From: Gemmatimonadota bacterium
GTDB lineage: Bacteria; Gemmatimonadota; Gemmatimonadetes; Palauibacterales; Palauibacteraceae
DNA: 64,000 bases
NCBI GenBank assembly: GCA_963666735.1
Contig: OY762926.1
Coordinates: forward strand, 2,880,001-2,944,000
Direction of reading: 5' to 3'
Position numbers and translations under genes: made by a program. The notes beneath the pieces are model-generated. The model was given only the letters and a program-made list of their open reading frames with translations. It did not search any database and was not told the origin of the DNA. Every line of letters starts with the position of its first letter. Within the stretch, counting starts at the first letter, position 1. Shown piece by piece: positions 19,046-20,039 of this stretch.

Positions 19046-20039
19046 ATGATCGACATCCTGGCGGACTCGCCAGACGACGGGGCGCTCATCGCAAGAGCCA
19101 TCGGTAGCGACACACGGGTCCTGAACAATTCCGTTCGGTTCGCGAACGGCGGCGCCCATGCCGAGTGTCGGATCCTGGGTTGCCGCCATCCGATTCAGGC
19201 GGAGCGAATCGAACTCGTGCGAAAGATCGAGCGTGACGCGCCGTGGGTTCCCGTCATCCTCGTGACGGATCACGCGCCCGGCGTTGCTCACCGGCTGTGC
19301 GATATCAGGGTGGCGGCCGTCGTCTGGTACCCGGACGTCCGAACCGAACTCGAGCCCCGGATCGTCGCCGTCAAGCAATCGGTCCCGCTCCTGCGCCTGG
19401 CCAAACAGGTGGAGGAAGCGAAGCTGCCTCCTGCCCTTCGATCCGGACTGGCGTACAGCTTGCGCGCCGCCACCCGCCGACCCGTGCGCGGCTTGAAGGC
19501 GTTGGCGGACGCCGTTCACATCTCTCCCATCACTCTGTCCCACGAGTTCCGGAAGAGTGCCGGCGGGGCGGCAAACCTGAGCCAGTTCCTCAGCGCCCTC
19601 ACGGTCCTGAAGGCCCAGGAGCTTCGTCTCTCGGGTTTGAGCTGGGACGTGGTGGCCGGACGCCTGGGGTTCGCGCGTCAGACCCTCCACAACAAATCGA
19701 CCCGCTGGCCGGGCAGCACGCTCAAACAACTCGCGCGTACGCGCCAAGCGCCGCCTGGAAGTCGACCGATGGCGGCGAGAGCTGGACCCAAACAACTCGC
19801 GCGTACGCGCCAAGCGCCGCCCCGGGTCGGCGAGCGGTGAGCCGGCAGGCGGAGGCGGCAAACAACTCGCGCGTACGCGCCAAACGCCGCCTGCGGCCCG
19901 GAGCGGGGGCGGTGGGCGACCAGTTCGGCACAAACAACTCGCGCGTACGCGCCAAGCGCCGCTGCTCGCAAAGTTCATCTCCGATTTCTCGAAACCGCTG
20001 CTCCGTACCAGTGACGCGGACCGTCCACCGATTTCTTGA
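19046..20039 (+). pseudogene. Receiver-like/AraC-type HTH transcription regulator interrupted by a repeat-spacer array
   Basis: AAGGAG RBS; WVPVILVTD receiver-like segment; two HTH-like segments (LKALADAVHISPITLSHEF, SWDVVAGRLGFARQTLH); current ORF stops at 19840 in spacer 2, and the frame of repeat 4 continues PLLAKFISDFSKPLL... to TGA at 20039. Confidence 0.65.
19723..19962. CRISPR. Orphan CRISPR-like array: 4 x 32-bp repeat CAAACAACTCGCGCGTACGCGCCAAGCGCCGC with 3 unique spacers (34, 38, 40 bp)
   Basis: Repeats at 19723-19754, 19789-19820, 19859-19890 (1 mismatch) and 19931-19962; internal 12-bp palindrome GCGCGTACGCGC; no cas genes in the window. Confidence 0.75.

Follow-up and report, generated by a model that had tools for sequence, protein, structure and literature searches.

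A natural neo-CRISPR array within the coding sequence of a regulator gene of a Gemmatimonadota bacterium

What kind of event places an array of the CRISPR (short palindromic repeats that are clustered and regularly interspaced) type inside a protein-coding gene, and which enzyme would carry it out? The question is raised by a stretch of 64,000 nucleotides (nt) from a Gemmatimonadota bacterium (GenBank assembly GCA_963666735.1, contig OY762926.1), here called the window, which corresponds to C1:2880001-2944000 of the genome and in which a regulator gene starting at 19046 is broken by four direct repeats with three unrelated inserts between them. The origin of new CRISPR arrays and of their repeat families is mostly inferred, and the direct evidence comes from over-expression experiments in Escherichia coli. 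A previous examination of the letters of the window, made without database searches (the sequence-only reading), had proposed that this array was born within the gene by three successive insertions at one coding site. Comparison with orthologues, which carry a single ancestral copy of the repeat, and the tracing of two of the spacers to their sources bear out this proposal, and we conclude that the locus is a natural neo-CRISPR array, that is, one in which a sequence that is not a CRISPR repeat has come to serve as the repeat.

The direct repeat, CAAACAACTCGCGCGTACGCGCCAAGCGCCGC, is 32 nt long and is present in 4 copies within window 19723-19962, with start-to-start distances of 66, 70 and 72 base pairs (bp). 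The copies are identical at 127/128 positions, and the three inserts between them, of 34, 38 and 40 nt, are mutually unrelated in sequence. This is the geometry of a canonical array, i.e. at least three near-identical direct repeats of 23-50 nt with unique spacers of similar length. The elements of the array and the two parts of the interrupted gene are as follows:

19046-19840, plus strand: present open reading frame (ORF) of the regulator, 264 amino acids (aa), with its stop codon TGA at 19838-19840 inside spacer 2
19723-19754, plus strand: repeat 1, the original coding sequence (L)KQLARTRQAP, continuous with the upstream gene
19755-19788, plus strand: spacer 1, 34 nt (up to 36 including CA)
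19789-19820, plus strand: repeat 2, identical to repeat 1
19821-19858, plus strand: spacer 2, 38 nt, 84% G+C
19859-19890, plus strand: repeat 3, with the sole change among the copies, G to A at 19884
19891-19930, plus strand: spacer 3, 40 nt
19931-19962, plus strand: repeat 4, identical to repeat 1 and running on into the 3' part of the gene that has been displaced
19963-20039, plus strand: displaced C-terminal coding remnant, LLAKFISDFSKPLLRTSDADRPPIS followed by the stop, out of frame with the gene

At the centre of every repeat copy lies a perfect 12-nt palindrome, GCGCGTACGCGC, which is found genome-wide only in these 4 copies; the palindrome alone was rejected as a target signal because the genome contains 2374 other perfect 12-nt palindromes. 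A search with the repeat 31-mer at up to 3 mismatches gave 4 matches in the window against 0 in each of 100 shuffles, and across the whole genome (3,977,883 bp in one contig) it returned the same 4 places only. The repeats, palindrome and unrelated spacers described from the letters alone are confirmed. Exact-match scans of genome_contigs and metagenome_contigs with the same 31-mer yielded no match. As the match between spacer 1 and its source (see below) runs on for 2 bases (CA) into the following repeat, a length of 30-32 bp results for the duplicated unit and one of 34-36 nt for spacer 1; the inserts measure 34-36, 38 and 40-41 nt. The unambiguous repeat border is exactly ...GCGCCGC, and the first base of all three spacers is C, which in both traced spacers is derived from the source. 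The array shows no linkage to cas genes, with Cas1/Cas2 lying more than 1.2 Mb away and the repeat occurring in no cas-linked array of the 35 other genomes of the genus, and it has no non-coding leader, as both flanks are halves of a coding gene (promoters were not scanned). RNA folding of this pseudo-repeat is no better than that of shuffled sequences (z +0.47 and +0.89); native repeat 1, by contrast, from the first of two resident arrays considered below, forms an 8-bp hairpin of -17.1 kcal/mol.

The regulator ORF reads through repeat 1 as ...PGSTLKQLARTRQAP, with repeat 1 itself translated as KQLARTRQAP, and the frame from 19932, i.e. from repeat 4 onward, reads KQLARTRQAPLLAKFISDFSKPLLRTSDADRPPIS up to the stop that ends at 20039. 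Excision of 19723-19930 (208 bp) results in a single frame of 261 aa, as had been claimed from the sequence. A match to HTH_18 (AraC-type, PF12833) at aa 153-220 of the regulator is weak (E 2.1e-05; 25.1 bits against a curated threshold of 33.6).

The state of the site before the array can be read from relatives. The closest homologues of the regulator are found in the genus genomes G008 (69% identity) and then G006, G033 and G002 (66% each), and all four have one copy of the repeat within a contiguous ...KQLAR(T/V/I)RQAPL(H/M/L)(A/K/E)KF(I/F)ADFA.PLL..., which is the arrangement that the sequence-only reading had expected of orthologues; more distant members of the family likewise read straight across the site. 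The shared flanks were examined by DNA alignment for G008 and G006, to both of which the upstream Na+/H+ antiporter gene is common at 88-90% nucleotide identity. G008 reads ...WPGSTLKQLARTRQAPLHAKFIADFAQPLL... uninterrupted, with 3 mismatches in 31 relative to repeat 1, and the one copy it has can be aligned to repeat 1 together with the upstream flank as well as to repeat 4 together with the downstream flank, a double alignment that is the signature of insertion with target duplication. When the repeat sequence was sought across 36 genomes of the genus, the present genome (G000) gave four copies, G008 the one just described, and the other 34 none. Given one uninterrupted copy in the relatives, the comparison shows that the single copy is ancestral and that the array was born inside the coding sequence.

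Two further changes at the locus concern the fate of the gene. In an alignment with G008, the displaced tail lacks 24 bp and carries 4 additional bp (CACC) within window 20010-20040; the insertion shifts the frame of the tail and thereby produces the TGA at 20037-20039, and the orthologue tails in G008, G006 and G033 extend about 35 aa further. These indels look like further decay after disruption of the gene. In the closest relative, G017 (about 95.7% flank identity), the 716 bp of window 19459-20174 are cleanly deleted, and with them the C-terminal half of the regulator and the entire array site; this genome is uninformative on the ancestral state, but together with the array the deletion means that this gene copy was inactivated independently in two close lineages. 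The regulator family is restricted to the genus, with homologues in 23/35 other genus genomes and 0/25 genomes outside it, and has several copies per genome (up to 9 matches). Its C-terminal motif, ...WPG.TL.QL...LL..F...PLL, is conserved, and HTH_18 covers the motif region only partly.

Spacer 1 is 34/34 identical to C1:1818310-1818343 on the minus strand (E 3e-13), 1.08 Mb from the array, and corresponds to the sense strand of a gene for a 1149-aa protein with BNR/Asp-box-like motifs (ORF C1:1815457-1818906). The same stretch is present in 16 other genomes of the genus, always with 2-3 mismatches, and this conservation gives the direction of copying as from gene to spacer; the allele distribution thus indicates a G000-type allele as the template of spacer 1. 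Spacer 3 agrees at 37/39 positions with C1:3412397-3412435 on the plus strand, with 3 mismatches over 40 (to 3412436), and again represents the sense strand of a gene, here for an 820-aa protein (ORF C1:3412121-3414583); no match with 3 or fewer mismatches to it was found in any other genus genome. For spacer 2 no source was found: its best match in its own genome is 18 nt, there is no match at 3 or fewer mismatches in the 35 other genus genomes, and exact-match searches of viral_contigs, metagenome_contigs and genome_contigs gave nothing. Judged by these matches, at least two of the prespacers derive from the chromosome, either of this strain or of one closely related to it. The cumulative GC skew has an irregular profile, with neither source site at a notable place. 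The mismatches of spacer 3 were considered as a sign of age and rejected as a weak one, the contigs of two public runs (X1 and X6, see below) showing spacer 3 without differences; the repeats that flank it have 1 change in 64 nt, and a divergent source allele fits the mismatches better than age, which is probably not their cause.

Independent sequence data speak to the physical reality of the array. At least part of the stretch is present in 20 listed public runs from 7 studies, among which there is no RNA run; one of the runs may be the source of the assembly, and contigs were compared for four runs from four studies: X1 (P1), X5 (P2), X6 (P3) and X8 (P4). The contigs of X1 and X6 cover the junctions of repeat 1 with spacer 1, of spacer 1 with repeat 2, and the whole succession from repeat 2 through spacer 2, repeat 3 and spacer 3 to repeat 4, with zero differences, and in X1 the depth of the repeat 32-mer is 2.7 times that of the flanks. 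As the junctions are reproduced in contigs from at least two studies, the array is not an assembly artefact. A 249-nt contig of X8 (depth about 4.8) joins 19722 to 19789 and so omits exactly repeat 1 and spacer 1; this could be a true variant with two spacers (or fewer) or an artefact of the assembly path, since other stretches are uncovered in this run and a de Bruijn path via the 33 shared bases, once a thin branch had dropped out, could yield the same joint. The pieces of the array in X5 are confined to 19000-19752, the 32-mer, 19861-19960 (with one difference, whose position was not located) and 19933-20600; with spacer 2 and the in-array junctions of spacer 1 uncovered, they would fit a one-spacer version and are not counted as evidence for it. 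A contig of X6 ends at 19464, near the breakpoint of the G017 deletion.

Which enzyme, then, could have inserted these spacers? The sequence-only reading had noted that the window contains no cas gene; this stands for Cas1 and Cas2 (other cas families were not searched for in the window), both of which lie elsewhere in the genome. It had further named as agent a Cas1-Cas2 acting in trans or another integrase, and of this the presence of Cas1-Cas2 in the cell is now established, while the agency of the resident enzymes is no more than probable in view of the lengths discussed below. There are two Cas1 and two Cas2 matches in the genome, only at C1:157-158 kb and C1:1258-1259 kb, and the genes are without internal stops. 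A type I-G system is encoded in full at locus 1 (about C1:150-158 kb), comprising Csb1/Cas7g, Csb2, Cas3g, a Cas3-extension protein, Cas4, Cas1 and Cas2, and locus 2 (C1:1258-1260 kb) encodes Cas2 and a Cas4g/Cas1g fusion that scores 783.8 bits against a cut-off of 560. Each of these type I-G modules has an array at its side, with a repeat unlike that of the array in the regulator gene:

C1:158506-162224: native array 1, 50 repeats of 37 nt, beside locus 1
C1:1255799-1258001: native array 2, 30 repeats of 36 nt, beside locus 2

The native repeats are exactly equal to the reference copy in 48/50 (array 1) and 29/30 (array 2) cases, a near-uniformity that suggests recent activity. Native spacers are 35-42 nt long (array 1, n=49, mode 38; array 2, n=29, mode 39), a range into which the inserts of 34-41 nt fit. 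When the 78 native spacers were compared with their own chromosome (E<=1e-3) 0 matches were obtained, as opposed to 2/3 of the inserts in the regulator gene. Such a contrast is expected if self spacers are purged from working arrays and tolerated where they do not arm interference, and it is in keeping with unselected capture at a site of the latter kind.

Two side observations concern the surroundings of these modules. The type I-G cas operon of locus 1 is preceded, at a distance of a few kb, by two ORFs (C1:146097-148928), one like a tyrosine recombinase and one like a TraI/MobA(P) relaxase, and from this gene content the CRISPR-Cas system of locus 1 may sit on an integrated mobile element. 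MenB (1,4-dihydroxy-2-naphthoyl-CoA synthase; C1:1267583-1268526, minus strand) is represented by two overlapping ORFs that match profile positions 4-167 and 164-273, which suggests a frameshift or a sequencing error.

None of the outcomes that the sequence-only reading had named as refuting its proposal was observed. Taken together, the observations make it almost certain that spacer integration of the Cas1-Cas2 type, of whatever origin, made the array, and we consider it probable that the integration was an off-target action of a resident Cas1-Cas2 module. The enzyme would most likely be one of the two type I-G adaptation modules, with that beside array 1 slightly favoured. We propose the following course of events: 1) a spacer integrase of the Cas1-Cas2 type acting in trans would treat a palindrome-centred stretch of 30-32 bp, located in the 3' portion of a regulator gene that is dispensable, as a CRISPR repeat, and would use it three times. 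2) In each full-site integration, staggered cuts would be made at both ends of the stretch, a prespacer of 34-40 bp would be joined in, and gap repair would duplicate the stretch. 3) The outcome would be four repeats alternating with three spacers, and a broken gene. 4) The self-derived spacers would persist because the pseudo-repeat differs from the repeat used by the resident effector complexes, and working guide RNAs are probably not made from them.

The site itself offers a possible link to native array 1. On the minus strand, the tail flank and repeat, AGCA/GcGgCGCTtGG (the slash marking the border), agree with the leader and repeat of native array 1, AGCA/GtGtCGCTgGG, at 12/15 positions (-4 to +11), whereas the three other pairings of orientation and array give 2-4/15; 146 of the 7,955,738 positions of the genome score at least 12/15. 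The far ends also have GTTGnnnG in common. The junction resemblance is suggestive only. In Kim et al. 2019 (PMC6895254), off-target sites of the type II-A Cas1-Cas2 of Streptococcus thermophilus are described as resembling leader-repeat junctions, and PMC6698737 says the same of off-target sites of Cas1-Cas2 of Pyrococcus furiosus. In this respect the present site, whose target is suggestive of such a junction, would be similar; the experiments described there are plasmid assays with other CRISPR types in which many off-target events are half-site.

Several points weigh against a resident module as the agent. 1) The duplicated unit of 30-32 bp is at odds with the native repeats, whose 36-37 bp is also the length to be expected here from a fixed ruler; this mismatch lowers the claim for the resident modules, not that for spacer-type integration. 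2) The window of the 12/15 comparison was picked after inspection, and 145 other positions of the genome score equally. 3) The whole pseudo-repeat compared with the native repeats is not significant in either orientation (shuffle fractions 0.30-0.91). 4) The two source sites have no obvious shared flanking motif (AGT/ACG on one side, CAC/GCC on the other). The cores of four leader-proximal native spacers, compared with viral_contigs in order to derive a native protospacer-adjacent motif, gave no exact match. 5) A genome scan for a second scar (exact 15- and 20-mers, periods 55-95, which older diverged scars would escape) found none, and yielded only an unrelated coding repeat and a unit of type I-E appearance with a 29/32/29 layout. 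6) The signals for the polarity of growth disagree, with the junction resemblance on the tail side and three signals on the gene side. Growth on the gene side, with spacer 1 the newest, is suggested by the X8 contig, by the repeat change in repeat 3 and not in repeats 1 or 2, and by the fact that spacer 1 and its source are exactly identical. The junction resemblance suggests growth on the tail side, with a pseudo-leader there, as does the G (minus strand) in which all three spacers end before the repeat; 24/49 native array-1 spacers likewise have a G before the repeat.

The first of these points gives the strongest of the alternatives its force, namely that the same event was carried out by an integrase other than the two resident type I-G modules, either a lost or mobile Cas1-Cas2 with a native repeat of about 30-32 bp or some repeat-duplicating integrase of a kind not yet described. 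Apart from the length of the duplication, two features of the genome speak for it: the recombinase and relaxase-like genes beside locus 1, a sign that cas modules move in the lineage, and the type I-E-like unit just mentioned (C1:3125502-3125591), the trace of another CRISPR type without matching cas genes. This unit, about 181.5 kb past the end of the window, consists of a 32-nt spacer flanked on each side by an exact copy, 29 nt long, of GGCTCCCCCGCGCGGGCGGGGACGGCGGG and is directly downstream of an apparent transposase fragment. On the other side, the inserts fit the unusual, broad spacer range of the resident arrays and are out of keeping with the I-E-like remnant, whose spacer is 32 nt, the genome has only two Cas1 genes, and the junction at the site has its suggestive resemblance to that of native array 1. 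Moreover, according to PMC6895254, which deals with other systems, the place of the second cut is set by its constant distance from a motif that lies in the repeat, so that a motif-set cut lets a pseudo-repeat differ in length; by analogy, a motif-anchored second cut could explain the non-native length of the duplication here. We regard an integrase other than the two resident modules as rather unlikely.

A second alternative is that an ordinary orphan CRISPR array abuts the regulator gene, with the in-frame continuation being coincidental. The locus does have CRISPR-like geometry and no Cas1/Cas2 nearby, and it shares with orphan arrays the isolation of a repeat-spacer array at a distance from cas genes. 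Orphan arrays normally have a recognisable repeat of a CRISPR family and are remnants or transfers, whereas the repeat here is coding sequence of the host gene, held once and conserved by the orthologues with the downstream tail directly attached, and it recurs neither elsewhere in the genome nor, by exact match, in the two contig collections scanned; the birth of the array is, unlike that of orphan arrays, readable from orthologues. The alignment of these already contradicts this explanation, which we hold to be highly improbable. Even less can be said for tandem duplication or replication slippage of a 66-72-bp segment followed by divergence between the repeats, or for an artefact of assembly, since, although Tandem Repeats Finder calls a period-70 array with 78% matches, the parts between the repeats are not diverged copies of the flanks but in two cases near-exact copies of distant chromosomal genes, the repeats have stayed virtually identical while the spacers are mutually unrelated, slippage, as the sequence-only reading had argued, cannot supply unique spacers, and the junctions recur in contigs of runs from two studies. 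Elsewhere in the window, at 57206-57497, there is a tandem repeat of 109 bp (2.7 copies, 84% matches) that is probably a coding repeat.

With integration of the Cas1-Cas2 type as the best account of the array, it can be placed among known systems. Nivala, Shipman and Church (2018, Nat Microbiol 3:310) are said to have obtained neo-CRISPR loci from off-target integration by the type I-E Cas1-Cas2 in E. coli, where the length of the duplication was reportedly that of the native repeat. A preprint that cites this study refers to its natural evidence as 'circumstantial evidence' from two other species. The array in the regulator gene is like the E. coli loci in that a non-CRISPR sequence serves as repeat, each insertion duplicates the target and adds an insert of spacer length, repeated hits give rise to a small array away from the cas genes, and spacers have a chromosomal source. 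The genome shows a duplicated target with unduplicated relatives, inserts of prespacer length with sources for 2/3 of them, and Cas1-Cas2 in the cell; the duplication is not of native length. The differences are that the present array is natural and not a product of over-expression, that it has three units at one coding site with the ancestral state kept in sister species, and that the resident systems are of type I-G with Cas4, with a duplication 5-6 bp shorter than the native repeats. Compared with the native type I-G arrays of the same genome, it is alike in the range of spacer lengths and in the central inverted repeat of each repeat, with a suggestive resemblance of the junction at one end to that of array 1 and a shared GTTGnnnG at the far end, and it is unlike them in the length and sequence of the repeat, in having no adjacent Cas1/Cas2, no leader and no stable repeat hairpin, and in the share of spacers that match the chromosome. 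A narrow literature search did not turn up any account of a natural array of several spacers that lies within a gene and whose self spacers have been traced. Beyond the known footprint of off-target integration, the locus adds the ancestral state, the traced self spacers and three successive hits.

A bolder possibility is that the birth of the array is still ongoing, so that near-identical wild strains have one-, two- and three-spacer versions and the site is a live, recurrent target; we think this doubtful. Should it be true, the duplication of 30-32 bp in place of 36-37 bp would mean that either the type I-G integrase sets the length of the repeat from motifs of the target (G.G.CGCT.GG at the junction and the terminal GTTGnnnG) instead of by a fixed protein ruler, or an unrecognised integrase is at work. 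In both cases the locus would record, in nature and without selection, what the integrase captures when interference does not purge the self spacers.

In its present form the locus is a natural array of three spacers that can be read event by event, with the intact target in sister species, two sources and candidate enzymes. It thereby provides a concrete substrate for asking what the type I-G Cas4-Cas1-Cas2 recognises and how the length of the repeat is set. It also exposes a capture of self DNA that is hidden in working arrays because autoimmunity removes such spacers, and it implies that the adaptation machinery can inactivate genes of its own host.

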